From Candidatus Zambryskiibacteriota bacterium (GTDB taxonomy: Bacteria; Patescibacteriota; Minisyncoccia; Phycocordibacterales; DATDWN01), in contig PPGI01000010.1 of the NCBI GenBank assembly GCA_003173855.1, positions 62,304 to 126,303 on the forward strand: DNA of 64,000 nt, in the 5' to 3' direction. The translations under genes were made by a program, and so were the position numbers. The notes under the pieces are model-generated. The model was not told the origin of the DNA and did not search any database. It was given only the letters and a program-made list of their open reading frames with translations. Shown piece by piece: positions 37,073 through 56,982 of the stretch; the stretch's first letter is position 1; every line of letters begins with the position of its first letter.

Positions 37073-37741
37073 ATGACTATTCTAATTGTTGAAGACGAAA
37101 AAAAGCTTGTCGATATTTTAAAGCGAGCCCTAAAAAGTGAACGTTATTCTGTAGATGTGGCTTACGATGGACTTGATGGTTTGTCTAAGGGCCTCAAAAA
37201 TAACTACAGCCTAATTATCCTCGACATTATGCTTCCAAAGAAAGATGGTTTTCAAGTCTGTAAGGAGTTGCGCGAGCATCAAATTCATACGCCTATTATT
37301 ATGCTTACTGCTAGAGGCAATACGGAAGACAGGGTCTCAGGACTTGATGTTGGCGCTGATGACTATTTAGTAAAACCATTTGGACTTGATGAATTGTTTG
37401 CAAGAATAAGAGCGGTTATGCGTCGACGAAAAACTACGGATGCTGATGTTAGAAAAGTATCTGACCTAATTTTGGATAAAAAGAAGCATGAAGTTACTAG
37501 AGGCGGCAAAGTGGTTGTTCTCACACCAAAAGAGTACAAACTTCTTGATGCCCTGATTACCCACGCAGGAGAAGCAATGAAGCGAAGGGAGCTAATTGAC
37601 TATGCTTGGGGTCCGTTATTTGAAGAATCAAACAATGAGCTTAACGTTCATATAAAATACTTACGAAATAAGATTGATGGGCCAAAAATGAAACCTCTAA
37701 TTCATACAATTCGCGGTGTCGGGTTTGTTCTTCGAGAATAA
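37073..37741 (+). CDS. OmpR-family response regulator
   Basis: Receiver domain (VEDE...LDIMLP...K) plus a winged-helix trans_reg_C domain. Confidence 0.85.
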   Translation: MTILIVEDEKKLVDILKRALKSERYSVDVAYDGLDGLSKGLKNNYSLIILDIMLPKKDGFQVCKELREHQIHTPIIMLTARGNTEDRVSGLDVGADDYLVKPFGLDELFARIRAVMRRRKTTDADVRKVSDLILDKKKHEVTRGGKVVVLTPKEYKLLDALITHAGEAMKRRELIDYAWGPLFEESNNELNVHIKYLRNKIDGPKMKPLIHTIRGVGFVLRE

Positions 37742-37797
37742 GTGGATAACTTTCTTGACAGCAAAAATTGTGTTACAATAGCTCCAGAGGAGGACCT

Positions 37798-38622
37798 ATG
37801 AGAAAGCTTAAGCTAGTGCAAGATACGACGCTTGGGCTCTTATTGGCCCAACAGGAAAACCTTAAAAACTTCTGGGATAAAAAAGTACGAGATCCATATG
37901 CCTTTGTCCCACATGAGTTGAAGGGTAAAATCAGTGAGGAGTTAGCTCGGGAAGAAAATGTAGCTCTTGGCCGATTTAGTACCGATTTTCTAAAAGAAGT
38001 CTTGAGGGATGTACGAGCCATAACAATCGAGAGACGACGAAACGAAAGAAATAAAATCGCTTCAATTGGTTATGGTTGTGGTTACGACAGTACAGGTGAA
38101 AATCGCTGGCTTAGATACGCAGCAGAAGCGAATCTAGAGACTGTTTGGATTGATGTCTCAGAGGTTGCTTACGCTGAAGCGTATCGGAAGCTACAAAAAG
38201 AGTACGTTGAACTTCAAGCAGAGAATACCTATTGCGGAGTAGCAAAACCTCAAATTATCTGTGGAGATATTCACAGAGTATTGTTTGAAGGTTTTGACTT
38301 CCCATTCAAACTCATTGAAATGTGGTATCTCTGCAGAATAGTTGGGTGTCTTTCAAAAAAAAGCGCGCCATTCGTTCTGCAGTCAATTGGAGAATCACTT
38401 TCAGTCGATTGCGACGAGTTCAATACACATCGGATTATTATCATAAACGCATTTCTTGATGATAATCCAAAGAGAGTTACCCAAACTAACACCTTGTACC
38501 GGAAGAGCTTGGTTTTAAAAAACCTTGAAGTCGGTGCAAATCGTCCTGTCGTTCCTTATGCTGAAGATACCTATCGCTACTTTGACCAGACCTATCGAGC
38601 GATAGCTATCAAGGCTAAATGA
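37798..38622 (+). CDS. Hypothetical protein, possibly a class I SAM-methyltransferase fold, inserted between RR and HK
   Basis: SD AGAGGAGG before ATG 37798. IGYGCGYD is glycine-rich and motif-I-like. GC is higher than the neighbours. Confidence 0.4.
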   Translation: MRKLKLVQDTTLGLLLAQQENLKNFWDKKVRDPYAFVPHELKGKISEELAREENVALGRFSTDFLKEVLRDVRAITIERRRNERNKIASIGYGCGYDSTGENRWLRYAAEANLETVWIDVSEVAYAEAYRKLQKEYVELQAENTYCGVAKPQIICGDIHRVLFEGFDFPFKLIEMWYLCRIVGCLSKKSAPFVLQSIGESLSVDCDEFNTHRIIIINAFLDDNPKRVTQTNTLYRKSLVLKNLEVGANRPVVPYAEDTYRYFDQTYRAIAIKAK

Positions 38623-38654
38623 TTGGCGGACACTCGTGCCCGCCAATTTATTTT

Positions 38655-40259
38655 ATGATTTCTGACAAAATAGCATTATTAAATCAAACAGTTCTAGAAT
38701 CTTTTAATGAAACAGATGAAAGAAAAATCATCGAAGCATTTAGCGAAGTTGGAATTAAAGTTTTGGAAGCAGATCACGCTTTCGTTTGGCTTAATTCATA
38801 CGCTTCACAGCATTTAGAATTGGTTTATACAAGCAAAAATTTACCATTTAAACCTAGAACACCGCGCGAAAAGGGAAGAAATTACAAGGCTTATTTAAGC
38901 GGGAAAGCAGATTTTGTAAGTGATGTCAGCAAAGTCGAAGATGCGAGCTATTTGAATAAATATATAAAAAGTTTTGTCATAATCCCAATTTGCTTTAGAG
39001 AGAAAATTTATGGGAATATAGTTTTTTGTTTTAAAAATAAGGAGCCATTTTTAGATGAGAAAAAAAGCCTGTGTTCTTTTATTGGTAATAGCTTAGCCCA
39101 AGCAATTACGATTAGAAGATTATTCGCTGGTGAGCAGGAAGCCAGAGCACTTTCTGAAAGGCATAAAGCATATTTTCAGGCACTAATTGAAAATAGCTAT
39201 GAAATCGAGATGCTAGTTGATAAAAACGGCATAATTTTATATAGCAGTCCATCAGTTAAAAACTTTTTTGGTCTAACAGTTAAACAAATAATAAATCATA
39301 ATATCAAAGAATTCATAAACAATAATGATTCTCAGAGCGTCACAAAATATCTAAAAAAAATACTTGAAAATCCTGGAGAAAATCATGTCAGAGAATTTTC
39401 TTATAAGAACAGAGATGGCATAATTAGAACTCTTGAATCCACTGGCTACAATATGCTCGATAATTTTAATGTTTCAGGAATTGTTATTAATATGCGAGAT
39501 ATTACATCGAGAAAAAGACTTGAAAGCGAAAAAGAAAGTCGACGATTATTATATGAGGAGAAAAAGAAAATTGAATTTATTGCTGAAGCGAATCACGAAC
39601 TTAGGACACCCTTAGCAATTATCAAGGGCAATGTCGATCTTATTTTGAGAGAAGCTGGTCCAAAAAGAAAAAGAAGGTATGCAGATGCCGCTCTTCGTCA
39701 AATTAATGCTGAGGTTAAACATTTAACGAATATTTTGTCGGATTTTTCGCTATTAACCACGCGAATCGAAGAATCTCCGTATAGAATTATCAAAAAGAAC
39801 GTGGCTTTAGACAAAATTATAAAGAGAGTTGTTAATAGATGTAAGATTATTGCTAGAAAGAAAAAAATTTCAATTAGAAAAAAACTTGCTGAAACGAATA
39901 TATTTGGTGATGCAAAATACCTCGATCGCCTTGTAATGAACTTAATTAAAAATGCTATTACATATGGCACTGAAAAAGGCTGGATTTTAGTAGAGATGTC
40001 AAAAAATGATGATCAAATCGTCTTAAAGGTTAGTGACAATGGTGTTGGCATAGGTGAGAATGATTTACCTTATATCTTTGAAAGATTTTATCGGGCTGAT
40101 AAGTCACATAGTGCGGAAGAGAAGAGAACCGGACTAGGATTGGCTATTTCAAAGTGGATTGTGGAAGCACATGGCGGCAAAATTGCTGTAGACAGCACCT
40201 TAGGCAAGGGGACGATTTTTACGGTTTCTCTTCCTACGAAGGGTCTAGAAACTGTCTAG
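38655..40259 (+). CDS. Soluble sensor histidine kinase (GAF-like + PAS + HisKA + HATPase)
   Basis: H-box NHELRTPL and N, G1, G2 boxes. No TM helices. The alternative start at 38619 overlaps the upstream stop. Confidence 0.8.
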   Translation: MISDKIALLNQTVLESFNETDERKIIEAFSEVGIKVLEADHAFVWLNSYASQHLELVYTSKNLPFKPRTPREKGRNYKAYLSGKADFVSDVSKVEDASYLNKYIKSFVIIPICFREKIYGNIVFCFKNKEPFLDEKKSLCSFIGNSLAQAITIRRLFAGEQEARALSERHKAYFQALIENSYEIEMLVDKNGIILYSSPSVKNFFGLTVKQIINHNIKEFINNNDSQSVTKYLKKILENPGENHVREFSYKNRDGIIRTLESTGYNMLDNFNVSGIVINMRDITSRKRLESEKESRRLLYEEKKKIEFIAEANHELRTPLAIIKGNVDLILREAGPKRKRRYADAALRQINAEVKHLTNILSDFSLLTTRIEESPYRIIKKNVALDKIIKRVVNRCKIIARKKKISIRKKLAETNIFGDAKYLDRLVMNLIKNAITYGTEKGWILVEMSKNDDQIVLKVSDNGVGIGENDLPYIFERFYRADKSHSAEEKRTGLGLAISKWIVEAHGGKIAVDSTLGKGTIFTVSLPTKGLETV

Positions 40260-40260
40260 T

Positions 40261-40292
40261 TTATTAAGAACTTATTAACAGTTTATTAACAA
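40261..40292 (+). promoter_or_regulatory. Three tandem 11-bp repeats TTATTAAGAAC / TTATTAACAGT / TTATTAACAA
   Basis: Immediately after the HK stop and about 125 bp upstream of the next HK gene. Confidence 0.45.
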
Positions 40293-40416
40293 TTTTTCCT
40301 TCATCAATAGGGAAGTATCTTTTGACAGTAACAAATTATTAAGATAAGATTAAATTTGTCATTTAAAAATTTAAATAATTTTTTCATGAAGAGGTTCGAT
40401 ATCAAAAAAAATACCT

Positions 40417-41511
40417 ATGATCAACAACTCGAGAATAAATCGGAGTCAAGGGATATTACAGGACGAAAAATTATTACGTTTACTTTTTGATAATACAAAC
40501 GAGCATGCAATCTGCATAATTACAAATAATGGGATCATTCGAACTTGGAATAAAAGTGCCGAAAAACTGCTTGGATTCAGCGCTGAAAATATAATTGGAA
40601 AAAATTATTCAATTCTATTTTCAAAAGAAGGTATAAAAAAAAGATTGCCCAAGAAACTTATTGCTGAGGCATCTCGAAAAGAAATCTCACGATCAGAAAA
40701 TGTTTGCGTACGAAAAGACAACACCTTTTTTTGGGGAAGCCTTTGTGTAACACCAATAAAAAATGGGTCTCGCCCGCATAATTTTGTCTTAATTATGCAA
40801 AATATTTCTGAAAAAAAAGAAATTGAACGTCAGAAAGACGAATATATTGGAATTGCTTCCCATGAATTAAAAACTCCAGTAGCCGCACTTTCACTATATT
40901 CTGAACTTTTAGCTGATAGATTAAAAACTGAGCATGATAAAAAAACTCTTCAATTATTTAATGATATGAAAGCTCAAGTCAGCAGGATGGTGAACTTGAT
41001 TGATGATTTGTTGGTTGTTAGTGAAATTGAGCGGAACAAATTGTCGCTAAATATCAAATCATTTAATATAAATCAGTTAATTAGAAAGGTTATTCATGAT
41101 TTTCAGACATCAACAATGACTCACAATGTGATTGTTGATGGAAAAGCCAAGGGAAATGTTTCAGGTGACCCAAATAGAATTACCCAAGTTCTGGTAAATT
41201 TAATAGCCAATGGCATTAAGTATTCTCCTCAAGCCAATAAAATATTAATTAAAATTACTAATGAAAAAAAGAAATTGATTGTCTCTGTTCAAGATTTTGG
41301 ACAGGGTATTACATTGCGAGAGCAACGTGACATTTTTAGACGTTATTTTCGATCATATAGCCTTGAAAAGGGGAATATTCCTGGATTAGGTCTTGGTTTG
41401 TATATTTCAAAAAAAATAATTGATAATCATGGCGAAAGAATTTGGGTTAGATCCCAGAGGGGAAGAGGTTCTGTGTTTTCTTTTTCATTAAGTTACGGAG
41501 CAAAACGATAG
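40417..41511 (+). CDS. Soluble PAS-domain sensor histidine kinase
   Basis: PAS followed by H-box SHELKTP and an HATPase_c domain. Confidence 0.8.
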   Translation: MINNSRINRSQGILQDEKLLRLLFDNTNEHAICIITNNGIIRTWNKSAEKLLGFSAENIIGKNYSILFSKEGIKKRLPKKLIAEASRKEISRSENVCVRKDNTFFWGSLCVTPIKNGSRPHNFVLIMQNISEKKEIERQKDEYIGIASHELKTPVAALSLYSELLADRLKTEHDKKTLQLFNDMKAQVSRMVNLIDDLLVVSEIERNKLSLNIKSFNINQLIRKVIHDFQTSTMTHNVIVDGKAKGNVSGDPNRITQVLVNLIANGIKYSPQANKILIKITNEKKKLIVSVQDFGQGITLREQRDIFRRYFRSYSLEKGNIPGLGLGLYISKKIIDNHGERIWVRSQRGRGSVFSFSLSYGAKR

Positions 41512-42167
41512 CCAAGGCCTCGTACGGTTTCAAGCAAGTGGTCACTGTTTCCAATGCCCAGTTTGCGTCTCAAATTTTTTACATGCACATCAACAACGTT
41601 GGAAAAAGATGAATAATTGAAATCCCATAAATGTGTTAATAATTCTTCGCGATTAACAACTTTGTGTGGATGTCTCATAAAATATTCTAGAAGGACAAAT
41701 TCCTTAAGAGTTAGTGAGAGTGATTTTCCACGTCGAGTAACGATATGCTTTACCGGATCGAGACTAATGTCCGAAACATTTAAAACTGAAGGAATGCTCT
41801 CTGGCGGACGCCTCAATATTGCACGAATTCGGGCTGTGAGTTCATCAAATGAAAATGGTTTTACCAGATAATCATCAGCACCCGAAAGAAGCAAATTGAC
41901 TTTTCTATCAGTTTCGCCATGCGCAGTTAAAATAAGAATTGGAGTGGTAATGCTAGTCTCCCGCATTTTTTTTGTAATCGACAGCCCGTCTTGACCTGGC
42001 AAAGTTAAATCAAGAATTATCAAATCATAATCCATGTGGTTTAATGAAATTCTCTTAAGGGCTGTTTCTCCATCATGAATAATATCCACTGCGTAGCCTT
42101 GTTTTACAAGACCTTCCATTAGGGCATCGGCAATACTTTTATCATCTTCTACGACAAGTATTCTCAT
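41493..42167 (-). CDS. OmpR-family response regulator
   Basis: Receiver and winged-helix domains. Convergent with, and overlapping, the upstream HK. Confidence 0.85.
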   Translation of the reverse strand: MRILVVEDDKSIADALMEGLVKQGYAVDIIHDGETALKRISLNHMDYDLIILDLTLPGQDGLSITKKMRETSITTPILILTAHGETDRKVNLLLSGADDYLVKPFSFDELTARIRAILRRPPESIPSVLNVSDISLDPVKHIVTRRGKSLSLTLKEFVLLEYFMRHPHKVVNREELLTHLWDFNYSSFSNVVDVHVKNLRRKLGIGNSDHLLETVRGLGYRFAP

Positions 42168-42296: not shown

Positions 42297-44180
42297 TTAG
42301 AAATGACATGTATCGGCACATGAACCAGTTGGAGTAAGCCCTGTCATAGTTTTATAGTGATCAGCAATTTCAGCTTCTGTGAGTAAACGATTGTATATCG
42401 CAACCTTTCCTATTGCCCCTTTGAACCATGTTTCTAGGGCCATTGTCCCAATGTTTAATGGAGAATTGTTTGAAGTTGGGATAATTTTGTACTGACTCAT
42501 ACATCCAGTTGGCATGTGATTTGCCATGCTCCACTTAATACCGTTAACCCAGATGTTTATTGAACCTGGATAAGCAGTTTGGCATCCCGTAGGTGTAGTT
42601 ATTGTCTCGTATTCTCCCACAACATGAATCCAACCTCCCTGTTTAATGAGACCAGAAATTGGTTGCCAATCTGCAGCAGAACCTAATCCTGCACTTGGAT
42701 TAAAGACATAAGCACTAATTCTATTCGTTCTTCCTTCAGGGTTATTTGTGCTATACATTCTAGATTCCCATTCACATGTTGGTCCATAGTCTTCACATTT
42801 ACCCATAAAGTCGATGTATCCATATCCACTGTCATTTGCAAATTGCAACGTATCAGGTCTTATCCATGCTTCCCATGTTAATTGATGAGTTGTTGGAATT
42901 GATAAACTTGAATTTGAAGGCACTTGAAGATACTCACTTGAACCATTGAAGTCTGCAGCATTGTCACCGTTTGGTAATTTAGCAGATAGCGGTGCACCAC
43001 CTTGGTATGTTCCGTTATTTCCATGTCCTGATTTGTCACTTTCGCTGGTACCTGGAGTAGCCATAGTAAGATACATTACAGGATTTCCAGCAAGAATAAT
43101 TGAGTCGTAACTTGAAGATGAAGGTGCAGGAATTGGAGTTGGTGATGGAGTTGGCGAAGGTGTAGGACTTGGAGTCGGAGAAAGAGTTGGAAATGGTGTC
43201 GGGCTTGGCGTTGGAGCAGGTGTTGGTACAGGAGAAGGAGTTGGAGTAGGGACTGGAGCTGGAGCGACAGCGAGAACAATTTGTGATGGTTTTGTCACAT
43301 TGAAGTTATCTAGCGAGATATCCATGAAATCAGATCTAATTCCAGTTAATCCGCTAGAAGTAATTTTTGAACTTGTAGAACCATTATCAATTGCTTGAAT
43401 TGCAAGTGTCCAATTACCTGAACCATTTTGATCTACATATAGATCTACATGAACATTTCCATTAAGATCGGTATAAGTAGAGTTTCTAATTCTCATCCAA
43501 GTATTTTTTGGAAGAACATCTGGATTTGTTGTTGAGTTGTATGTTCCAGAGAAAAATGGCTTTTCAGCAAGTGTGTAATATGCGCCATTTATTTTTTTCT
43601 TAACAATTACATGTCCATCAACACGAATACCAGTATAATAGAAATTTCCGTTTTGCATTCGGCTGATTAGAAAGATTCCATTCCATGGATTTCTGTTAAC
43701 TGAATTCGACAGATTGTCTTTGTTAATTTTTACTGATATCCAAGAATCAGAGTCAGTTTGAGGTTGCCTCAAAAGTAAAGAGAAGCTATTTTGCGGATGT
43801 AATCCCTGATCGCTTCCAATCGGATTTGAGTTTAAGTATTTTAGATACCAAGGATTTGAGCCTAAAATATCACCCTGCAAGCTTTGGCCTATTCCTCCAT
43901 TAACAAGAAGCTGCCCTCCTGATGAAATCCACCAGTAAGGACTTCCTGATCCATCGGGAGTACCGACTTCATTTAATGTGCCAGGAGCGCTGAAAGTGTA
44001 ATTCCAAGGAAGACTAATAGAAGCAGCAACAGATGCTCCAAATGCGCTTAGGGGTAAAAAGAGTAGGATTCCTAGAGCTAGACCTGCCAAAAATACAAGA
44101 TTTCTTAATAATTTGTATTTTTTCGCGGGGTTTTCTAGAGCGATTGCACGACTCTTTGATTCATTATGGCTGTAATTCAT
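42297..44180 (-). CDS. Secreted multi-domain protein: lectin/LamG-like domain, Pro/Thr/Ser linker, C-terminal beta-rich domain
   Basis: N-terminal TM/signal. The [11 protein letters not shown]...GLHPQN domain is paralogous to the 46337-47203 gene. PTPSPTP linker. Confidence 0.5.
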
Positions 44181-44431
44181 TTATATGTTATTTAATTTAT
44201 TAATACCTTCGAGTAATCCCAAAGGTATAAACAATTTTAGATAGCCAAATTTTGAATCTCAATAAGAAAACTGATTTAACAATATTTAATCTTTTTATTC
44301 ATGAAGAGAAAAATTTTATACTTGAAAAATAAGGCTGTTTTAAAATTTGATTTAAAAATTTCATTTTGACTTCAATATAAATTAATTAAGTCTTCATTAA
44401 ATACCACATTAAATTTCTTCATAATCAAAAA

Positions 44432-44460
44432 CCCCAGAAATCTGGGGTTTTTGAAACTGA
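44432..44460. terminator. Terminator hairpin (AAAACCCCAGA ttt CTGGGGTTTTT)
   Basis: Perfect stem. Serves the upstream minus-strand CE4 gene. Confidence 0.5.
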
Positions 44461-44473
44461 CGTTTTATCGAGT

Positions 44474-46306
44474 TTACTGCAAGGATTGAATTCCTTGGGA
44501 GACAGTAACAACTGGAACACCTTTAGTAACTAGATAATCAACAATTTGATTAAATATTGCCGGGGTAGTGCTAAATTGATTTCCGCTGTTATTAACTTCG
44601 TGTATTGCAAGGATAAGCCAGGTTTTATTGGCTGCAGCCTGGTCAATCCAAGCTTTTACTTGAGCAAAAGTTATATTAGAAGTTACGCCTTCACGCTCAA
44701 GCTGATATCTGTCTGATGTCGGAGTAACGAATCCATCAAGTGTTGCCACGGCATTATTAAAGCCAGCATCTTTAACAATTTGAATAGTTATTGAATCGTA
44801 GTCACCATATGGATAAGCAAACGACGTTATTGGCCCGACATTTAATGCGAGCAAATCATTTCTTGAACCCTGGATTTCAGTTTGTTGGTCAGCAGGAGAA
44901 AGTTGTGTTAGGAAAGGGTGAGTTTGGGTGTGCGCGCCGATTTCATTTCCCATTGCATAAATTTGTTTGATTTGACTTTTACTCATGAAGTCTGGAAAGC
45001 CATCGTCCGCAGTTTGCCTACTAACAATATAGAATGTTCCATTTACTCCAGCCGACTGCATTTTTGGAATGGCATTTTGGAATTGTGACAGCCAACCATC
45101 ATCGAATCTAAGAGTGACTGCTCCAGTCGAGAATACTCCGGAAACTCCAGATTTTTTAACAACGGAAACATTATCAATTGTTAAACTACCAACGCCTTCT
45201 ATTAGATGAAAGACAGTTACACTTTTAACCGCTTGGCTAACGCTGAAATCGACATTCTTTGTAGTTGGAGTACTTGCTGCTGGAAGACTAGCAATATCCT
45301 TATAGGTAATTGTTCCGTCATTGTTAATGAACTGGACAGTGATCAAACTTGAAATATTCGATTTATATGTATCAGAGTAAGTATAAATTCCTTGAGTTAC
45401 AGGAACTGGATCAAACCACCATTTAGCATCTCCAGTTGTAAAAGATGTGACGTTTATTGTTGCAGAATTTCCGCTGCCAAGTGAGGTTCCGGGATAAACA
45501 AATTGTCTAGTGTTTGTGCCCCAGCCACCTTTGTTCCAACCTTGCGGCAATCCGTTTGAACCCGGAGTTTCAAAATTACCGTTTGAAACAAGATTACCGT
45601 CAGAGCTCGTTGTCGTAATTTTATTTAAGGAGAAATCATCAATTGATAGGCTTCCGTTTGATTCGATCAAGTGAAAAACTGTTAACGAAACTACATTAGC
45701 TGGAACAGTAAAGGTTACATTATTTTGTTGGTAAGTTGAACTTGGATTAATAAATGCAACATCTTTATATACAAATGTACCATCACTCAGTTTGAATCTG
45801 ACATCAATTACTGTCGGTACATTTGAAAGTGAATAATCAGATAATTGGTAATTATCTCCCGGTGAAACTGCGACATCATCGAAGTACCATTTTGCGTCTC
45901 CGCTTACAAAATTTGTAATAGTTACTTGAGCAGCCTTAGTATCAGTGTTGCCATTCACAGGGTAAGTAAATGTTCGCGTGTTGCTGCCATAACCGCCCTT
46001 GTTCCAATTTGCTGGACCGCCAGTCGTTGTTGTGTTTTGAAAGCTTGGATTTGGAACAAGATTTGGTCCAAGTGTCTGGTTTGATACAGCTTGAGTTTGA
46101 AGTGTTGACGAAGTATTTTGAGTAGTAAGTTTTGATTGATTAGTTGATAATGGAGTGATCGGGTTGTTTAACCGTGATTTTCTTACTTCGGGAGTTGAAC
46201 TGCCTTCAACTTTTGGAGACTTTGCTCCCAGGGCAGTTTGTCCAGAAATAAGAGCAAACAAAAGCAGTACGCTCAACATTATATTTTTTTTATTTTTCTT
46301 AATCAT
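44474..46306 (-). CDS. Secreted polysaccharide deacetylase (CE4/NodB) with two N-terminal carbohydrate-binding-like repeats
   Basis: Repeats GDAKWYFDDVAVSPG and GDAKWWFDPVPV. C-terminal TLRFDDG...HTQTHP NodB motifs. Confidence 0.65.
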   Translation of the reverse strand: MIKKNKKNIMLSVLLLFALISGQTALGAKSPKVEGSSTPEVRKSRLNNPITPLSTNQSKLTTQNTSSTLQTQAVSNQTLGPNLVPNPSFQNTTTTGGPANWNKGGYGSNTRTFTYPVNGNTDTKAAQVTITNFVSGDAKWYFDDVAVSPGDNYQLSDYSLSNVPTVIDVRFKLSDGTFVYKDVAFINPSSTYQQNNVTFTVPANVVSLTVFHLIESNGSLSIDDFSLNKITTTSSDGNLVSNGNFETPGSNGLPQGWNKGGWGTNTRQFVYPGTSLGSGNSATINVTSFTTGDAKWWFDPVPVTQGIYTYSDTYKSNISSLITVQFINNDGTITYKDIASLPAASTPTTKNVDFSVSQAVKSVTVFHLIEGVGSLTIDNVSVVKKSGVSGVFSTGAVTLRFDDGWLSQFQNAIPKMQSAGVNGTFYIVSRQTADDGFPDFMSKSQIKQIYAMGNEIGAHTQTHPFLTQLSPADQQTEIQGSRNDLLALNVGPITSFAYPYGDYDSITIQIVKDAGFNNAVATLDGFVTPTSDRYQLEREGVTSNITFAQVKAWIDQAAANKTWLILAIHEVNNSGNQFSTTPAIFNQIVDYLVTKGVPVVTVSQGIQSLQ

Positions 46307-46336
46307 ATTTTTTTATTAGATTATTAATGGTTAGCT

Positions 46337-47203
46337 CTATGGGGACATAGCGCTAAAATTTTTAAATTTAACATCCATAAAATCAGTTCGAATTCCAACA
46401 TTTCCGGATGAGACTATAGGTTTTGTACCTGATAAAGTTTCGGAATCAACTACATCTAAAACCAATTTCCATTCGCCAGAATCAGTAAAATCAATAAAAA
46501 ATTGAAGTTCAACTTTTGTTGGGTCAATATTTTTAGCAATTAATTTTTCACCAATCCATTTTTGTGTTGGTAATAAAATTGGATTTGAATAATGATCGTA
46601 ATTTTTATTATCAATAAATGTGCTTGAGGCCAAAGTTGTATAAACTCCATTTATTTTTTTCTTGATTACAGCTGTACCGTCAACACGCATCCCGGCATAA
46701 TAAAGATTATCTCCATCTAAATATCGGCTCATAAGTAATACGCCATTCGACATATTACGGTTTGGGCTTCTACTTAAGTGATAATTCTCAATTTGAAAAA
46801 ATAATGATACGTCAACATCTCCCCAGACTTCTGTATTAATCAATCTAAAAATATTTTGCGGGTGAAGACCTTGGTCCGTATCCACAGGATTATTTTTTCT
46901 GTAAAGTGTTTTCCAAGGTGATTGAGCCGGAATGTCATTTTGTAATGTTTGTCCTATGCCATCTTCAACATAAAAAATTCCACCTGAATTTAACCACCAG
47001 CAATGTTCCCACGAATCATTTTTTGCATCCGATTCTTCTAAAACCCCCTCGGTAAATTGATTGCAATTTTCTGGGATGTTTGATGATCCTCCAGAATAAA
47101 GAATTTTTCTCGATGGAAATCCAAAGAGGGACAGAATATAATAAATCCCAATAATTTGAGCGAAGAGTATAAAGAAAGTTTTTGATGCAATTAATGAGTT
47201 CAT
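46337..47203 (-). CDS. Secreted lectin/LamG-like protein (paralog of the 42297 N-terminal domain)
   Basis: WWLNSGG...GLHPQNIF...GMRVDGTAVIKKKINGVYTTLA aligns with the 627-aa protein. Confidence 0.5.
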   Translation of the reverse strand: MNSLIASKTFFILFAQIIGIYYILSLFGFPSRKILYSGGSSNIPENCNQFTEGVLEESDAKNDSWEHCWWLNSGGIFYVEDGIGQTLQNDIPAQSPWKTLYRKNNPVDTDQGLHPQNIFRLINTEVWGDVDVSLFFQIENYHLSRSPNRNMSNGVLLMSRYLDGDNLYYAGMRVDGTAVIKKKINGVYTTLASSTFIDNKNYDHYSNPILLPTQKWIGEKLIAKNIDPTKVELQFFIDFTDSGEWKLVLDVVDSETLSGTKPIVSSGNVGIRTDFMDVKFKNFSAMSP

Positions 47204-48789
47204 GGCTCGATTGCTTTAACTGTTAAGTTATCAATTTCAACTTGGCTGTTTCCTGGAGTTGCATCCCAAGTTTTAATTCCAATTCCGCCGTGTGACAATG
47301 ATGGATCAAGAAAATCTGTCTGGGTAATCACGTTGCCATTAATTAGGCATTGGACACTACGGGCAACAACCCGCATGCCAATTCTGAATTGACTTTGGCC
47401 AGGATTATATGAATTGGTATTTCCAGCAATCACTCGATCCTCGCCATTTTTCACTTGTTCAATGTGGACAAGATCGTTCTTAAAATTGCATGCTGTTAAA
47501 TTTTTATCATCTGCATATCGAGAAGAGAGATAAATATTATTTCCTTTAATCCAACGAACTTGTGCGCTAATTTCATAGTCAGTCCAATCATCAGTTCCAT
47601 CGAGGACAACCGTGCTTCCTGTTCCATCGGGTAGGGCACTAATAACCATTTTGTTATTTTCCAAAGTCATTGTTCCCCAGTTCGTGTTAATCCAGCCGTC
47701 AACATTGGTAAAATTAGCGGAAAATGGCAAGGTTTTTGCTTGGCCAGAATTAAATTCCTTAATCAGATCGTTTCCTGACCAATGAGGAGAAATTCCGATT
47801 CTCTTGATCATAAATGAATTTTGACTAGGAGTTAGCGGATAATTTTGACTATATCGGTAATTGTTCGAATATTGATAAAAATTAAGTGGGTAAATATTTT
47901 CTGCTATTGGTACTATAGTTTTTTCAGCATCAGGAAAATTTACTGTCGAATATCCATAATCTCCAAATGGAAAGGCGAAAGCTATAATTGGTTTGCCAAA
48001 TGTTTCCTGAAGATTTATTTTTGATTGCAATAGATCATTTCTTGTTCTGTCACTAAATTCTGAAACTGACTCAACTCTTCCAAAATTTGAAAGCCATAAT
48101 TTGTTTGAGAAAAAATGTCCCTTATTACCTTGATCATCAATAAAATAATTTGAGTGTGATGAATATCCATGAGACTGTATCTCCCACTCATTGGTACTTG
48201 CCATTTTTTTGAGCTCATCGAGAGACAAATAATAATTGCTTGTTCCTTCAAGTGAATATTTATCAATGACAAACATTACGGCATGATAATCAAGCGAACG
48301 CAAAATTGGATCAGCAGGGTAGTAGCTGTCTTTTCGACCATCATCAAAAGTCAAAAGAAATGATTTTGGGGGGAGTTTTTTTGTGCCTTGCATGAAATCA
48401 TAAAAATCTTGCATTGTAATAGTTTGCCAACCATTTTCTTTAAGTGTTTTCATCTGATCCCAAAATGTTGCGAGATCAATATTTGTCGCTTCTCCTTCGT
48501 TGTCAGAAGTTGCTGGTCCACCAAGCACCCCGTGGTAGAGAAGTACTGGAATTGATCGAGCATATTGTTCGGTCGTGGTTGAATCACCCATAACGTGTCC
48601 GGAAATGACCATTTCCTTCAAGTTGTAGGGGATAACATAAGAATATGATTTAAGATAATAGGATTTGTAATTGGCAAACAAGTGTTCATTTTGAAAGTAA
48701 ATAAACATGCCAATTCCAAATATGGCAATAATCGTAAAACTCCAGAGAATTTTTTTATTTAATCCGGTTGATGTTGCAAAATAAACCAT
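47200..48789 (-). CDS. Membrane-anchored polysaccharide deacetylase (CE4) with a C-terminal beta-sandwich domain
   Basis: LLYHGV and LTFDDGRKDSYY NodB motifs. N-terminal TM. Confidence 0.6.
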   Translation of the reverse strand: MVYFATSTGLNKKILWSFTIIAIFGIGMFIYFQNEHLFANYKSYYLKSYSYVIPYNLKEMVISGHVMGDSTTTEQYARSIPVLLYHGVLGGPATSDNEGEATNIDLATFWDQMKTLKENGWQTITMQDFYDFMQGTKKLPPKSFLLTFDDGRKDSYYPADPILRSLDYHAVMFVIDKYSLEGTSNYYLSLDELKKMASTNEWEIQSHGYSSHSNYFIDDQGNKGHFFSNKLWLSNFGRVESVSEFSDRTRNDLLQSKINLQETFGKPIIAFAFPFGDYGYSTVNFPDAEKTIVPIAENIYPLNFYQYSNNYRYSQNYPLTPSQNSFMIKRIGISPHWSGNDLIKEFNSGQAKTLPFSANFTNVDGWINTNWGTMTLENNKMVISALPDGTGSTVVLDGTDDWTDYEISAQVRWIKGNNIYLSSRYADDKNLTACNFKNDLVHIEQVKNGEDRVIAGNTNSYNPGQSQFRIGMRVVARSVQCLINGNVITQTDFLDPSLSHGGIGIKTWDATPGNSQVEIDNLTVKAIEP

Positions 48790-48798
48790 AATTTTTGA

Positions 48799-50163
48799 TT
48801 AACGTGTGCCCCAGCGGCTGTCACGGATTTTTAAAATGGCGTACGGCAATTGCCATGCAAGAATCAAACTATAGAATGCTGTGGAAACTGAACCAGAAAG
48901 CCAGCGATTGTCTCCGGTGTATCGGTAATAGTAAAGACCGTAGATTAATGTCATTAAGAGTAAGCCGCTGAAATAATAAAGAGGAACAATTCCGCTATTA
49001 ACTGGGTGCCAAATTAAGGTTCGAATGAGAACAAATGGAGCAAGAAGTGGCAAGATAAATCCAAGATAAAACGAAAGACTCATTAGTAAATTTTTTCTCC
49101 ACATGAAAAAACATGCCATAAAACTTTCTCTGAACCATGATTTTTTCCAGCGAAGCTGTTGTTTCATATAGACTTTGAAATTGTCTGGAACAAAAGTGTG
49201 AGCGATTGAATCAGGAGCAAAAACAGTGTCAAATCCATGTTTCAGCACCCGATTGGTAAGACTTCGGTCATCACCATATGTACATTTGACCCCGAGAAAT
49301 TTTTGGTTTGTCCATTCATCAAGCATTGGTAAAATTACTGATCTTCTGTAAGCAGCAAGACATCCAGAGCAGCAAGTTACTGAACCAAAAAGAGCTTCAG
49401 CAGATTTGTAAGCTTTAAAAGCTACGTAATAACGGACTGATTGCATTCGAGTCAAAAAATTTGTTTCGGCATTTGCTACAAGTGCTTGGCCAGCGACTGC
49501 ACCGACGTTCGGCAGAGAAAAATATTTGACCATCGTTTTAAGAGCTTCCGGTTCAATAAAACTATCTGAATCGACAAACAAAATAATTTCTTTATCAGAA
49601 ATTCTGGTACATTCCGCCATCCCATCTCTTTTCCCGCGATTTATTTTCCAATCAACAACGATTACGTTCACGCCTTCAAGTGCTGCTAGGCGCTTTGCTT
49701 CATTCATTTCCTCGAGAGTGTTGTCAGTTGAACCGTCATTAATGGCGATAATGTCGAATTTATCTTTTGGGTAATTTGCTCTTGTCATTCGCATTATAGT
49801 TTCTCTTATGTGCTCACCTTCGTTTTTTGACGGCACAGCAAAGGAAACTGTCGGTTCGTAGTTCGGATCAAAAGAAGTTTCAGTGGGTGAATAAAAATAT
49901 GACAGAGCAAAACGAGAAATAACATAAGAGGCTACCATTAAGCTATAGCCAAAAAATATTATCTGGCCTTGCATCCATTGGATAGACAAAATTTTTATTA
50001 TCATTACTGAAAAAATCAAAACGTAGAAAACCACTGCAGCAAATGCTCTTGTTTTTGCTTTTCTATCAATTCGCGTATTTGCGAGGGCAATATTATTATT
50101 TGCAATTGTGTAACTCATTTTTTTATCGGCCAATTCCTTTGTAAGAGACCTGAGAATCTTCAA
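48799..50163 (-). CDS. Processive family-2 glycosyltransferase (PgaC/IcaA/cellulose-synthase-like)
   Basis: INDGSTDNT and VDSDSF DxD motifs, QQLRWKKSW (QxxRW). Multiple TM helices flank the catalytic domain. Confidence 0.75.
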   Translation of the reverse strand: MKILRSLTKELADKKMSYTIANNNIALANTRIDRKAKTRAFAAVVFYVLIFSVMIIKILSIQWMQGQIIFFGYSLMVASYVISRFALSYFYSPTETSFDPNYEPTVSFAVPSKNEGEHIRETIMRMTRANYPKDKFDIIAINDGSTDNTLEEMNEAKRLAALEGVNVIVVDWKINRGKRDGMAECTRISDKEIILFVDSDSFIEPEALKTMVKYFSLPNVGAVAGQALVANAETNFLTRMQSVRYYVAFKAYKSAEALFGSVTCCSGCLAAYRRSVILPMLDEWTNQKFLGVKCTYGDDRSLTNRVLKHGFDTVFAPDSIAHTFVPDNFKVYMKQQLRWKKSWFRESFMACFFMWRKNLLMSLSFYLGFILPLLAPFVLIRTLIWHPVNSGIVPLYYFSGLLLMTLIYGLYYYRYTGDNRWLSGSVSTAFYSLILAWQLPYAILKIRDSRWGTR

Positions 50164-51601
50164 AGATTTTTTTGTTTAAGCAATTTCGACCATCAATGAC
50201 TACTTGAATTCCATATTCACTAAGAAACTTTGGATTTAAAGTTAAAAATTCTCTATGAGCTGTTGCGATAATAATTGCCACAGCTCCAGTTAAGCTTTCG
50301 TCTAAGTTATTTGAGACAATTTCTTTCTTGACATATGGGTCGTACATATCAACATCAAAACCGTTTTGCCTCAATTCTTTATAAATTTCAAAAGATGGGC
50401 TTTCTCGAACATCAGAAATATCAGGCTTGTAAGATGCTCCAAGAACAACCACTTTTCCTTTCTCAATACCTCGTTTTTTTAATTCACGCTTTAGAAGTTT
50501 TATCGTATAACTCGGCATGTAGTTATTGATTTCTCGAGCTTGCATCAAAAATTTGTGTTCAAAACCATTTTTCTTTGCGTGCTCGATTAAGTAATACGGA
50601 TCAACAGGGATGCAGTGGCCGCCCACACCGCAACCTGGATAGTGAGCAAGAAAACTAAATGGTTTTGTCGATGCTCCACGAATTACGTTTACAATATCTA
50701 TACCTAAAACTTCAAATGACATTGCCAATTCATTTACAAAAGCAATGTTGATATCACGAAATGAATTTTCAACAATTTTGACTGCTTCAGCTTCTTTAAT
50801 GGAAGCCATCGGAGTTACTTTTCCTTTGCCTAAGATGCTTCGGTAAAACACTAAAGTTTTTCTAAGGCCTCTCTCATTTAAACTGCCTACAACACGGTTA
50901 ATATTTTCTAATGTCCAAGTGCTGTCGCCAGGATTAATTCGTTCTGGACAATGGGATAAATCAAAATCAATTCCTGCTTTTAATCCTGAACTTTTTTCTA
51001 AAATTGGAAGAACAATTGATTCACAAACACCTGGATTAACTGTTGATTCAATTATTACGAGATCTCCCGGTTTCAATTCTTTTGCAACACTTTTTGATGC
51101 TTCTATTAAAGGAACGAAGTCAGGTTTTGAATTCTCATCGATTGGGGTAGGGACGCAAACAATAATTATTTCTGATTCTCTTAAAAAAATAGGATTAGAA
51201 TTAACAAACAATTTGTTCTTTTTAAGAGAGTATCCAATTTTTTCGTCAACGAAAGGAGAGATTTGCCTTCGAATTAACTCTACTTTTTCTTCGTCAGTGT
51301 CTATTCCGATAACAGAATATCCATTTTCTTTTGCTAAAAGCGCTAAGGGCAAGCCAACATATCCTAAGCCGACAATAGCTACATTCTTATTTTTTACACC
51401 CTCTCTATTTCTTTGCTCCTTATCTTCTAAATTTAAATTTTTTTCGTAAGTCTCATGAATATTAAAATCTTTTATCTCAATCCCTTCGTTCTTTGTTGTT
51501 ACAGTATTCATTTTATTTTTTGTTAAATATTTATTAAAATTTCTCTCAGTATAAAGAAAAAAGATAAAGAATTTATGAAGCATTTGTAAGATTTTCTTCA
51601 T
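50123..51601 (-). CDS. UDP-sugar 6-dehydrogenase family (UDP-GlcNAc/ManNAc or UDP-glucose dehydrogenase)
   Basis: NAD-binding VAIVGLGYVGLPLA and catalytic GGHCIPVDP. The true start may be an internal codon, since the N-terminal ~70 aa are atypical. Confidence 0.7.
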   Translation of the reverse strand: MKKILQMLHKFFIFFLYTERNFNKYLTKNKMNTVTTKNEGIEIKDFNIHETYEKNLNLEDKEQRNREGVKNKNVAIVGLGYVGLPLALLAKENGYSVIGIDTDEEKVELIRRQISPFVDEKIGYSLKKNKLFVNSNPIFLRESEIIIVCVPTPIDENSKPDFVPLIEASKSVAKELKPGDLVIIESTVNPGVCESIVLPILEKSSGLKAGIDFDLSHCPERINPGDSTWTLENINRVVGSLNERGLRKTLVFYRSILGKGKVTPMASIKEAEAVKIVENSFRDINIAFVNELAMSFEVLGIDIVNVIRGASTKPFSFLAHYPGCGVGGHCIPVDPYYLIEHAKKNGFEHKFLMQAREINNYMPSYTIKLLKRELKKRGIEKGKVVVLGASYKPDISDVRESPSFEIYKELRQNGFDVDMYDPYVKKEIVSNNLDESLTGAVAIIIATAHREFLTLNPKFLSEYGIQVVIDGRNCLNKKIFEDSQVSYKGIGR

Positions 51602-51635: not shown

Positions 51636-52280
51636 ATGAAAATCTTAATAATTGAAAATGATGAACATTTTCAAAATCTTTTGAAAAAAAATTTTGAATC
51701 CCATGGATTCACTGCAGAAATTGCAAAAACTCGAGAGGAAGGAATAAAATATATAGAAAACAATGAAGAAATTAATCTAATTATTCTTGATTTGTTTTCT
51801 GAAGAGGGAATATCAGCAGAAGTTTTTTGTAAAAAAATAAAATCAACAAATTTAAATCTACCAATTCTTGTTTTAAGTAAAGAATATGAAATGGTAGACG
51901 TAATGAAGGTCCTTGAAAATGGAGCCGATGACTATCTAGTCAAGCCTTTTTCAATTGATGAATTGATATCCAAGGCAGAAGGCATGCTTATGGTAAAAAA
52001 AGAGAATAATGAGGAAACAAAAGATGAAAAGAATGAAGTTGTCATCGAAGACATTCATTTAACTCCAAAGGAGGAAGCAATTTTTAACTTTCTTGCCCAT
52101 CATCCAAATGAAGTTTTATCTCGAGACACTATATTTGAGAATGTTTGGACATTTGATTCACGATCCATATCGAATGTAATTGATGTCCATATGAAGAATC
52201 TGCGCAAAAAATTTAAGCGCTCAGGAAAAAAGAATGTGATAGAGACAGTTTGGGGGCTAGGGTACAGGTTTTCAAGGTAA
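51636..52280 (+). CDS. OmpR-family response regulator, divergent from the EPS operon
   Basis: Receiver domain with a long acidic linker, then a winged helix. Confidence 0.75.
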   Translation: MKILIIENDEHFQNLLKKNFESHGFTAEIAKTREEGIKYIENNEEINLIILDLFSEEGISAEVFCKKIKSTNLNLPILVLSKEYEMVDVMKVLENGADDYLVKPFSIDELISKAEGMLMVKKENNEETKDEKNEVVIEDIHLTPKEEAIFNFLAHHPNEVLSRDTIFENVWTFDSRSISNVIDVHMKNLRKKFKRSGKKNVIETVWGLGYRFSR

Positions 52281-54196: not shown

Positions 54197-54269
54197 CGTG
54201 TGAGTTTGTCGAACATCTGTCGACTAAACCCACGAAAGAACATCCCAAAAAGAACTTCTAGCGAACTAA

Positions 54270-55499
54270 CTACCACTTCTTGTCTCCGCCCTTGTCTCCG
54301 CCGTGATCTCCACCTTTGTCACCACCGTGATCGGGTGGTGGAGCGGGAGTTGGGTTTGGAGGCTGGACCTGTGGTGTGGCCTTTGCCTCATTGTTATTGT
54401 TGTTCGAATTCGAATTCTTTGACACAGCGTCTGAACTCGAATCTGCTCCGGCGGCTGCGCCGGCTGAGACTTTGCCGACATTTCCGCCATCTGCTTTTGA
54501 TTCGCCTCCAGTTGCCGTAACGTTTCCGTTTTTGGCACTTGAGTTTGAATTTGACTCTCCACCATTGCCGACACCGTTTGCGGTAACAGCTCCATTGGTG
54601 GCGTTGGCTTGTCCGCCGTTTGCCTGTGAGCTCGAACTTCCGTTAGCGCTCACATTACCGTTACTCGCACTCGCCTGTCCGCCGTTTGCTTGTCCACCAT
54701 TTGCTGTGTTGTTTACAACAACTGATGGTCCGCTCGATCCAGATCCGGTAGAACCCGAACTCGAGCTTGAAGTCGATGACGAACTTGAACTGGTTGCAGA
54801 CGCGCTGCCACCAGCTCCGCCTTGACCGCCTGTTGCATTTGCCGACGCTCCGGTCTGCGTTTGATTTACGTTGACAACTGGCGCCGGAATTTTCCCGATC
54901 GCTGTGGTCATCATTGACCCGATTTTCTGGGTCTGACCGGCGAGCGTTTTTCGAACAGCATCGACAGATGCTGTGTTGGCATTCACCGCATCGTAAATCT
55001 TGCCAGTGTTGTGAGCAGTGACAAGATTTGCGTATGCAGAGATTCCACCTTCGACTGTAAGAGCAAACAACCACTTGTTCGCTGTGCTTGTTGAGCCAGC
55101 GATTCGCTCTTGAGCACGTCGGCTTCGATCAGCGATTTCGTTACCACGCTTCAACTCTTCAACCACTGCAGTTGAATCGAAATTCACTTGCGGTGGTGGC
55201 GTTGCTCTCTGCAGAAGCAGAGCGAGTGCATCTCCAGTAAACGCTGGTTGCACTGGTGCCTGCGGATTTTCCACGTGGTTCTCGATCACGATCACAGGTG
55301 CGGCCGGGTGTTCCGCGGCAATGACTTCTGCTTTGGCACGCGCTCGACCACTTGTGACCGGTTTCTTTGCTTGTGTGCAGTCAACCTGAACAGTGATCTT
55401 TGATCCGTCCGGACAGGTGACTGTTGTCGGAGTGAGCTGAGCTTCCGCAAGATTTGAACTTGCGAATGCGAGCACGATAACGAGCCAGAGTTTCCTCAT
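54270..55499 (-). CDS. Secreted protein with a long Gly/Ser/Asn/Ala low-complexity region and a C-terminal HGGDKGGD repeat
   Basis: Signal peptide MRKLWLVIVLAFASSNLAEA. GC near 50%. Confidence 0.5.
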   Translation of the reverse strand: MRKLWLVIVLAFASSNLAEAQLTPTTVTCPDGSKITVQVDCTQAKKPVTSGRARAKAEVIAAEHPAAPVIVIENHVENPQAPVQPAFTGDALALLLQRATPPPQVNFDSTAVVEELKRGNEIADRSRRAQERIAGSTSTANKWLFALTVEGGISAYANLVTAHNTGKIYDAVNANTASVDAVRKTLAGQTQKIGSMMTTAIGKIPAPVVNVNQTQTGASANATGGQGGAGGSASATSSSSSSTSSSSSGSTGSGSSGPSVVVNNTANGGQANGGQASASNGNVSANGSSSSQANGGQANATNGAVTANGVGNGGESNSNSSAKNGNVTATGGESKADGGNVGKVSAGAAAGADSSSDAVSKNSNSNNNNNEAKATPQVQPPNPTPAPPPDHGGDKGGDHGGDKGGDKKW

Positions 55500-55510
55500 A
55501 GTTTCCTCTG

Positions 55511-56836: not shown

Positions 56837-56873
56837 GAGCCTCTATCATCAACTTGTTTCCACTTAATAAAAC

Positions 56874-56892
56874 TGTCCCGGTTCCGGCAACA
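56874..56892. repeat. 19-bp direct repeat TGTCCCGGTTCCGGCAACA (copy 1)
   Basis: Exact 19/19 match with copy 2, 90 bp away, in the promoter region of the LysM gene. Confidence 0.6.
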
Positions 56893-56963
56893 GCTCATCT
56901 CATGGTCATTTTTGAAGATTTTGGTTTCCCGCACTTTCGAGATTCTTTTCTTTGTTTGTGTGA

Positions 56964-56982
56964 TGTCCCGGTTCCGGCAACA
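56964..56982. repeat. 19-bp direct repeat TGTCCCGGTTCCGGCAACA (copy 2)
   Basis: Exact 19/19 match with copy 1. Confidence 0.6.

Follow-up and report, generated by a model that had tools for sequence, protein, structure and literature searches.

The 64,000-nucleotide stretch analysed here (the window), from contig PPGI01000010.1 of Candidatus Zambryskiibacteriota bacterium, has a G+C content of about 36% and carries an operon built around a membrane glycosyltransferase of family 2 (GT2). We propose, with moderate confidence, that this locus makes an amino-sugar polymer of the cell surface by a synthase-dependent route. The operon consists of six open reading frames (ORFs), all on the minus strand and in the same direction, running from position 51601 to position 42297 in the ORF listing. 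An initial annotation of the window had described this six-gene operon and its gene order, and ORF, Pfam and NCBIfam analyses bear out both. Its genes, and a related deacetylase gene at the edge of the window, are as follows.

50123-51601, minus strand: nucleoside diphosphate (NDP)-sugar 6-dehydrogenase (DH) (Pfam, NCBIfam)
48799-50163, minus strand: GT2 synthase (Pfam, NCBIfam)
47200-48789, minus strand: mCE4, a membrane-anchored protein of carbohydrate esterase family 4 (CE4) with a C-terminal ConA-like (DUF1080-like) domain (Pfam, NCBIfam)
46337-47203, minus strand: U288, a 288-residue (aa) membrane-anchored protein with a predicted ConA-like β-sandwich (predicted model; no Pfam family)
44474-46306, minus strand: 610-aa secreted protein with a signal peptide, two repeats resembling carbohydrate-binding module (CBM) family 4_9, and a CE4 domain (Pfam, NCBIfam)
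42297-44180, minus strand: 627-aa surface protein with an anchor or signal sequence, a U288-paralogous domain, a PT linker and a Laminin_G_3 (LamG) domain (Pfam)
62702-64000, minus strand: distal CE4 with a CBM4_9-like module, a PT linker and a CE4 domain (Pfam); abuts the window edge

The first five genes lie close together, at spacings of -4 to 30 nucleotides (nt): the mCE4 gene begins 9 nt past the GT2 stop and overlaps the U288 gene by 4 nt. The gene for the 627-aa protein is preceded by a 293-nt gap and may therefore have its own promoter; promoter and terminator scans gave no signal above shuffled expectation, including at a promoter-like site (44262-44234) before this gene. The ORF coordinates of the initial annotation hold, except that the DH and GT2 genes probably start further downstream. 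The longest GT2 ORF opens with TTG and the database protein P0001 (439 aa) begins 15 codons later, M16 (position 50118) being the likely true start. The deposited DH ORF of 492 aa exceeds most of its homologues (about 424-445 aa) by ~50-65 aa and leaves only 34 bp to a divergent regulator gene, both of which argue for a later start, probably at Met31 (position 51511) or beyond. As initially reported, inspection of the ORFs and their Pfam matches revealed no Wzx/Wzy or ABC exporter inside the operon.

The operon proteins

The GT2 matches the Pfam families Glyco_tranf_2_3 and Chitin_synth_2. In NCBIfam, it scores 196.7 bits on the NodC profile TIGR04242 (cut-off 550) and 129.3 bits on the PgaC/IcaA profile TIGR03937 (cut-off 422.3). 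Its best solved relatives by sequence are two hyaluronan synthases (HAS), Xenopus HAS1 (XlHAS1; E 9e-37) and the Chlorella virus enzyme (CvHAS), with alignments that reach through the membrane region. It is 29-30% identical to HasA (150 bits) and ~30% identical to Sinorhizobium meliloti NodC (144 bits). A model computed with AlphaFold2 from 20 homologues (pLDDT 81.7) has long helices at residues 314-430; when it was compared with the PDB using Foldseek, the top 13 matches were all HAS (TM-score 0.70-0.74), against 0.50-0.62 for BcsA and 0.50-0.53 for chitin synthases (CHS). Hydropathy places transmembrane (TM) helices at residues 26-44, 53-71, 347-365 and 377-395, two on the N-terminal side of the cytoplasmic GT-A domain and at least two on its C-terminal side, so that TM helices flank the catalytic domain as in processive synthases.

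D183/D185, G282-D283-D284-R285, Q320-Q321-x-R323-W324 and a C-terminal WGTR are invariant among the 20 GT2 homologues. The DxD and QQLRW motifs of the initial annotation are present as DSD and QQLRW, and are joined by GDDR and the WGTR end. The family-invariant motifs are DSD, GDDRSLTN, QQLRWKKSWFRE and an exact WGTR end. DSD, GDDR and QQLRW align with the motifs of CvHAS and XlHAS1, and the C terminus of Bacillus cereus HasA is likewise WGTR. In CvHAS, K177 and R341 recognise the carboxylate of glucuronic acid (GlcA) (PMC12987647); their equivalents in the GT2, K163 and R323, are invariant. We dropped this Lys/Arg pair as a marker of uronic-acid use, as NodC has both residues. As judged from sequence and model, the GT2 forms a separate clade within the HAS/NodC/CHS group and is a processive synthase with its own channel; both it and the DH were placed by pairwise scores, which are cruder than a phylogeny.

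The DH carries all three Pfam UDPG_MGDP_dh domains and the catalytic-Cys motif GGHCIPVDP. Its NCBIfam scores, all below the equivalog cut-offs, are 300 bits for archaeal UDP-ManNAc dehydrogenase, 234 for TviB and 212 for WecC, compared with 170 and 150 for the UDP-glucose dehydrogenases AglM and TuaD. Among PDB entries, it scores 254 bits with a UDP-ManNAcA dehydrogenase (4r16), 237 with Cap5O and 226 with a UDP-GalNAcA dehydrogenase (3g79), whereas Streptococcus pyogenes HasB (1dli) reaches only 64 bits. It scores 129 bits with B. cereus HasB and 166 bits with Escherichia coli WecC. The top named plasmid BLAST matches are TviB-like (37-40% identity), and JGI labels close homologues 'UDP-N-acetyl-D-glucosamine dehydrogenase'; both sets of names speak for GlcNAc. 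The aminuronic type suggested by the initial annotation is thus upheld by NCBIfam, PDB, BLAST and JGI names alike: by sequence comparison, the DH belongs to the UDP-N-acetylhexosamine (HexNAc) branch and not to the UDP-glucose type. It is probably a UDP-GlcNAc 6-dehydrogenase with UDP-GlcNAcA as its product. A UDP-GlcNAc 2-epimerase lies near only 1 of 85 related loci, with none in the window, which disfavours a ManNAc route.

Two CE4 deacetylases lie in the operon, and the third, at 62702-64000, is the last in the window. The initial annotation had counted three plus a fourth; the 627-aa protein has a Laminin_G_3 domain and no CE4 domain. In Pfam, mCE4 matches Polysacc_deac_1 (E 9e-15) and, weakly at its C terminus, 3keto-disac_hyd (DUF1080). 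Its N-terminal domain scores 102 bits on the NCBIfam PgaB profile, a score that the lack of a GH153 half keeps below the equivalog cut-off (322), and its best PDB matches are the deacetylase halves of BpsB and PgaB, with which the DD and H...H motifs align. H86, D149, D150, H207 and H212 are 88-100% conserved in 64 homologues. A single N-terminal TM helix (residues 14-32) is preceded by two Lys residues, and the catalytic domain should therefore face outward.

The 610-aa protein has an N terminus resembling a signal peptide, matches Polysacc_deac_1 (E 2e-23) and scores 106 bits on the NCBIfam HfsH profile; D402, D403, H459, H463 and H569, which match the CE4 pattern of Asp-Asp (MT1), His-x-x-x-His (MT2) and catalytic His (MT5), are 93-100% conserved in 14 homologues. 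The catalytic Asp and His residues are therefore kept in both operon CE4s. Its repeats are 37% identical to the module of the distal CE4 that matches CBM_4_9 (E 2e-4). The distal protein, which matches Polysacc_deac_1 with E 1e-33, is 34% identical to the 610-aa protein and has the CBM-PT-CE4 architecture initially assigned to it. PT linkers occur in the distal CE4 and the 627-aa protein; the CBM-CE4 protein of the operon has none.

U288 matches no Pfam or NCBIfam family. It has at least 1506 homologues, all named 'hypothetical', and a profile search of 1.84 billion representatives returned 779 clusters (50% identity), of which 362 lie below 1e-30. A gene identical to that of U288 is present in Logan run SRR490130. 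Its predicted model is a confident ConA-like β-sandwich that superimposes on CBM66, in keeping with the lectin-like label of the initial annotation. Although this fold is common to U288 and the CBM66/DUF1080 family (PF06439), U288 escapes that family's profile: the window protein has no match, and 1 of 36 members matches with E 0.011. U288 further differs in having an extra N-terminal sub-structure with an invariant WWLNSGG and its own set of invariant residues, and in usually being a stand-alone, membrane-anchored protein encoded next to a synthase. Close kinship with the DUF1080-like domain at the C terminus of mCE4 was considered, and is not claimed at a profile-profile probability of only 13.7%.

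U288 is a paralogue of the 627-aa protein's N-terminal half (39% identity over 249 aa, E 7e-53), as the initial annotation had proposed for its two lectin-like proteins. The 627-aa protein continues with a PT linker (residues ~300-360) and a Laminin_G_3 domain (residues 412-606, E 2e-11). In its region of residues ~110-125, the invariant Arg of PQNxFRL (R120 in U288) is replaced by Ser (PQNSFSLL), and most other invariant residues are kept. Its ligand or affinity may therefore differ from that of U288.

U288 domains elsewhere are fused to CE4 domains (heparinase II/III(N+C)-CE4-U288, CE4-PKD-U288 and a single-polypeptide mCE4-U288), to glycoside hydrolases (GH5-U288, U288-Ig-GH6-PG_binding_1 and U288-CAP-GH6), to PG_binding_1 alone, and within PKD and BACON arrays; tandem U288 copies also occur. 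This pattern suggests that U288 behaves as a carbohydrate-binding module, its CE4 partners pointing to a ligand with an N-acetylated sugar and its heparinase-like lyase partners to a uronic acid in that ligand. GH5 and GH6 are predominantly β-1,4-glycanase families. The 4-nt overlap of the mCE4 and U288 genes here and the single-polypeptide fusions elsewhere both argue for a functional link between the two proteins. Two of the fusion proteins, P0267 and P0268 (1163-1372 aa), carry a C-terminal U288 domain together with a CE4 domain and heparinase II/III-like N and C domains, and from this composition look like dedicated degraders or remodellers of the same polymer.

Several invariant Arg and Lys residues of U288 (R173, K181, K183 and R272, plus R120 and R149) fall at alternating strand positions. 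This pattern would weakly suggest an acidic ligand. Given its fusions and its predicted fold, U288 is fairly likely to be a non-catalytic binder. It is doubtful, though conceivable, that U288 instead trims or cross-links the polymer as a jelly-roll enzyme (lyase, hydrolase or transglycosylase), in the manner of BcsZ, AlgL or PelA: a glycanase is a usual member of synthase-dependent systems, the ConA-like fold is common to GH16, PL7, PL14 and DUF1080 hydrolases, and U288 has many invariant Arg, Lys, Tyr, Gln and Asp residues. This ConA-like module folds well and has no name so far; a new CBM or Pfam family could be registered for it.

Conservation of the cassette and known counterparts

The GT2 family is large, with 2444 matches at E<1e-10 among 8000 candidates scored, its members being named 'glycosyltransferase' in databases or, by JGI, 'hyaluronan synthase'. 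It was found in 412 GTDB species (one genome per species), the best match having 64% identity. Most carriers are Patescibacteria, and several are DPANN archaea (Woesearchaeota and Nanoarchaeota). GT2s with 43-47% identity occur in Actinomycetota (Rhodococcus, a Frankia symbiont and Pseudonocardiaceae) and in one acidobacterial and one proteobacterial metagenome-assembled genome (MAG).

To describe gene neighbourhoods, the ORFs of the 80 best loci were labelled by the window proteins within a 7-kb reach. A GT2 ORF is present in 79 of these loci, and 59 have enough flanking DNA to be evaluable. They reveal a recurrent cassette, DH - GT2 - mCE4 - U288: mCE4 is found in 69 of the 79 GT2 loci, a U288-type protein in 59 and the DH in 50, and in 36 the DH lies directly upstream of the GT2 on the same strand. 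Among the evaluable loci, 35 have DH, mCE4 and U288, 13 have mCE4 and U288 without DH, and 4 have DH and mCE4. In DPANN loci the order is U288 - DH - GT2, followed by a DUF2334/CE4-like gene, and actinobacterial loci have DH - GT2 - CE4. The closest relative found (L001, 73% identity) carries the complete set of six genes in unchanged order. By contrast with the core genes, a homologue of the CBM-CE4 gene lies within 7 kb of the GT2 in only 13 of the 79 loci and a LamG protein in 2; the architecture of the 627-aa protein adjoins the cassette in loci L039 and L064. The CBM-CE4 and LamG genes are thus lineage-specific decoration of a conserved four-gene core. What the initial annotation had taken for an unusual stoichiometry is this widely conserved core with its local additions. 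A literature search found no description of the cassette in the candidate phyla radiation (CPR) or in DPANN archaea.

More distant relatives of the GT2 (38-47% identity), from Paenibacillus and from the proteobacterial and acidobacterial MAGs, are adjoined by GH18 genes. GH18 is a chitinase family, which suggests a β-1,4-GlcNAc backbone for the wider family. One of these loci lies at 261845-269475 of the 897-kb Paenibacillus cellulositrophicus plasmid NZ_CP045296.1 and reads CE4 - GT2 - CE4 - GH18; its GT2 (625 aa) is 38% identical to the window synthase. This annotated, uncharacterised locus, being in a cultured strain, could serve as an experimental proxy for the GT2 family.

A scan of viral contigs returned distant giant-virus and chlorovirus HAS/CHS relatives (26-37% identity, 110-225 bits). 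It also returned a 66.8-kb 'viral' contig (IMGVR_UViG_3300019888_000005, L091) with an actinobacterial-type DH - GT2 - CE4 cassette, in which the GT2 has 44% identity and two ORFs after the cassette show faint similarity to U288 (20-27 bits). This contig could be a prophage neighbourhood, a misclassification or a case of phage carriage.

Each of several known systems resembles part of the cassette. Like class I HAS, the locus has a single membrane GT2 that would both polymerise and translocate its product; the HAS enzymes are closest in predicted fold and have in common with the GT2 the motifs DxD, GDDRxLTN and QQxRWxKSxxRE and, in HasA, the WGTR end. As in the has operon (hasABC), a nucleotide-sugar 6-dehydrogenase is encoded alongside. 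However, that dehydrogenase is of the UDP-HexNAc branch and not of the UDP-glucose type, identity to HasA is no higher than to NodC (~30%), galU/hasC is absent here, and has operons are without the CE4 deacetylases and lectin modules that are tightly coupled to the synthase in the cassette.

The NodC/NodB pair of rhizobia, a chitooligosaccharide synthase and its deacetylase, likewise combines a GT2 of the same group with a CE4. NodC is the best NCBIfam match of the GT2 and has the CC(S/C)G...YRR motif in common with it, but the score is 197 bits against a cut-off of 550, and no NodA, small NodB or NodIJ exporter is encoded in the operon. NodB is cytoplasmic and small (217 aa), whereas the present CE4s, PgaB- or HfsH-like in sequence, are large proteins that are secreted or anchored in the membrane.

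With PgaABCD and IcaADBC, which make poly-N-acetylglucosamine (PNAG), the locus would have in common the synthase-dependent secretion of a GlcNAc polymer followed by its partial de-N-acetylation outside the cytoplasm, a parallel drawn by analogy. The deacetylase domain of mCE4 resembles PgaB and BpsB, including the arrangement His/Asp-Asp/His/His. The differences are that the synthase is not PgaC/IcaA-like, that PgaD/IcaD and PgaA are absent, that a DH and lectin-module proteins are added, and that a ConA-like domain in mCE4 takes the place of the GH153 domain of PgaB. The single-pass proteins of the operon, mCE4 and U288, have large ectodomains, unlike the small co-subunit PgaD/IcaD. The initial annotation had likened the locus as a whole to Pga/Ica: the synthase-dependent mode is consistent with the predicted topology and HAS-like fold, but the synthase itself is HAS/NodC-like and only mCE4 is PgaB-like.

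The closest analogue in gene content comes from eukaryotes and their viruses. Clusters of a UDP-GlcNAc 6-dehydrogenase (UNGD), a CHS-like synthase (CHS8; classes CV and ESV) and a deacetylase have been described, from genomics only, in some fungi and in chloroviruses and phaeoviruses (PMC4059230, PMC5122149, PMC7053769). Going by the published descriptions (PMC4059230, PMC5122149), a UDP-GlcNAc 6-dehydrogenase, a HAS/CHS-like GT2 and a deacetylase there stay side by side as well and seem to have passed as a unit from one distant lineage to another; these clusters differ in being eukaryotic or viral, in their larger GT2s and in that no U288-type protein is reported.

The proposed polymer

We propose the following sequence of events. 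The DH would oxidise UDP-GlcNAc to UDP-GlcNAcA in the cytoplasm. The GT2 would polymerise UDP-GlcNAc, probably with or alternating with UDP-GlcNAcA, into a β-linked chain and extrude it through its own transmembrane channel, for which no Wzx/Wzy or ABC exporter would be needed. Outside the membrane, mCE4 would de-N-acetylate part of the emerging chain, and U288 would bind the polymer and hold or guide it at the cell surface. In this lineage, the secreted 2xCBM-CE4, the U288-PT-LamG protein and the distal CBM-PT-CE4 may modify or bind the polymer further out. We infer the sugars and how they are linked, that the synthase takes UDP-GlcNAcA, and that U288 acts as a binder. Of the parts of this proposal, a secreted GlcNAc-based polymer that undergoes extracellular de-N-acetylation is the one that we hold to be probable. 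That the polymer contains GlcNAcA is possible, somewhat short of probable. The heparinase II/III-CE4-U288 fusions and the Arg/Lys pattern of U288 hint at a uronic acid, and the GH18 neighbours and the U288-GH5/GH6 fusions hint at β-1,4-linked HexNAc.

Several observations weigh against this proposal. About 30% of the evaluable loci have no DH, so the synthase can presumably do without it, and another pathway might be fed by the DH product. Of the NCBIfam profiles, that of archaeal UDP-ManNAc dehydrogenase is the one that the DH matches best (300 bits, with TviB at 234), which makes UDP-GlcNAc a favoured and not a firm assignment as its substrate. The Lys/Arg pair of HAS type, occurring in NodC too, does not discriminate between substrates. 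The similarity of mCE4 to PNAG deacetylases hints at β-1,6 rather than β-1,4 linkage.

The loci without DH could also be explained by a plain chitin- or chitosan-like β-1,4-GlcNAc homopolymer, turned by the CE4s into a chitosan-like coat, with the DH serving another glycan pathway. NodC being the best NCBIfam profile for the GT2, GH18 lying beside distant GT2 relatives and U288 being fused to GH5 and GH6 would all fit such a product. Nevertheless, we regard it as unlikely, in view of the DH being directly upstream on the same strand in 36 of the 79 loci and within 7 kb in 50, of its staying with the GT2 in the bacterial, archaeal and actinobacterial forms of the cassette alike, and of the lyase fusions to CE4-U288, which imply a uronate-containing ligand.

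A different possibility, raised in the initial annotation, is that the secreted CBM-CE4s, the U288/LamG protein or all accessory proteins act on the wall of a host, by de-acetylating its peptidoglycan or chitin or by adhesion. CPR bacteria and DPANN archaea have been described as episymbionts (PMC7906910), and such a lifestyle would suit this function. The combination of CBM, PT linker and CE4 is one typically met in secreted enzymes whose substrates are insoluble glycans, CBM-CE4 and LamG proteins accompany few of the loci (13 and 2 of 79), and PG_binding_1 occurs in some U288 proteins. Host-wall action by the products of the outer three genes is compatible with the polymer system that we propose. 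As an account of all accessory proteins it meets the difficulty that mCE4 and U288 are membrane-anchored, are encoded with a 9-nt gap and a 4-nt overlap, co-occur with the synthase across phyla and are sometimes fused to one another; anchoring, linkage and fusion argue that they are dedicated partners of the synthase and not free-standing effectors. We therefore rate host-wall action decidedly low as the main function.

A PNAG (β-1,6-GlcNAc) system of the Pga/Ica kind has in its favour the synthase-plus-deacetylase gene logic and the PgaB/BpsB N-terminal domains as nearest relatives of mCE4. It is improbable, since on the PgaC_IcaA profile the GT2 reaches 129 bits (cut-off 422), fewer than on NodC, and in predicted fold it ranks with HAS; since the operon has neither PgaA nor a small membrane protein like PgaD/IcaD; and since the glycanases of relatives are of GH18, GH5 and GH6 (β-1,4 families) and not of GH153 or dispersin type. 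Genuine hyaluronan (GlcA-GlcNAc), as implied by the JGI name and by the HAS-like motifs, WGTR end, best solved relatives and hasAB-like adjacency of dehydrogenase and synthase, is barely credible, because the DH scores 64 bits with S. pyogenes HasB against 226-254 with HexNAc dehydrogenases, the GT2 is as close to NodC as to HasA (~29-30%), the operon has no hasC/galU, and hyaluronan synthesis has no role for tightly coupled deacetylases.

Of these readings we favour the synthase-dependent amino-sugar polymer, and put forward a fuller version of it tentatively. In this version, a distinct clade of HAS-like synthases would build a hitherto undescribed acidic aminopolysaccharide, a β-linked copolymer of GlcNAc/GlcN and GlcNAcA, in CPR bacteria, in DPANN archaea and, with a simpler gene set, in some Actinomycetota; the system would be the prokaryotic counterpart of the UNGD-CHS-deacetylase clusters; U288 would be the founder of a polymer-specific CBM family, and the polymer would form an envelope or attachment matrix for episymbionts. 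All the enzyme families involved are known; the novelty lies in details, namely the clade to which the synthase belongs, the HexNAc dehydrogenase with which it is paired, and the U288 family. If the proposal is true, the cassette represents a new branch of the hyaluronan/chitin/Nod-factor synthase group, paired with a UDP-HexNAc dehydrogenase, and it may also explain the clusters of fungi and algal viruses. Little is known about the surface glycans of CPR and DPANN organisms, which have tiny genomes and are thought to be host-attached. Kept in hundreds of species and across the divide between bacteria and archaea, the cassette is a strong candidate for encoding a major envelope or attachment polymer. 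As all its parts are small and suited to heterologous expression, the hypothesis is directly testable.

Surrounding genes

Regulatory genes flank the operon on both sides.

51636-52280, plus strand: divergent orphan OmpR-family response regulator (Pfam Response_reg and Trans_reg_C)
41493-42167, minus strand: downstream OmpR-family response regulator (Pfam)
40417-41511, plus strand: PAS histidine kinase, convergent with the downstream regulator (Pfam)

The divergent response regulator at 51636 had been noted in the initial annotation and is confirmed as OmpR type; no equivalent lies upstream of the cassette in L001, so it is not conserved with the cassette there. The downstream pair belongs to a two-component cluster at 37073-42167, made up of a response regulator (37073-37741), a 284-aa ORF without assignment, a GAF-PAS histidine kinase (38619-40259) and then the PAS histidine kinase and response regulator listed above. 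In L001, two response regulators and two histidine kinases likewise follow the cassette, a synteny seen in this closest relative only.

Elsewhere in the 64-kb window, rpoB/rpoC, dnaG, rpoD and bipA are presumably present, as recognised from translations alone without a family search; scans for tRNA genes and for Rfam families at the gathering threshold returned none. Upstream of the operon, positions 54200-57800 have a G+C content of 0.44-0.50, compared with ~0.35 elsewhere, and, to judge from this composition, may have been horizontally acquired. This island holds three minus-strand ORFs, encoding a 409-aa secreted-looking Ser/Gly/Asn-rich protein without a Pfam match, a 441-aa protein with LysM and a 236-aa protein without a convincing family. 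Between the operon and the third CE4 also lie genes for a class-A-type β-lactamase-like protein (57947-58918) and a sortase (58960-59550); sortase genes occur near the GT2 cassette in two other loci. They are followed at 59878-61149 by a gene for a Thr-rich surface protein of 423 aa that belongs to no Pfam family.

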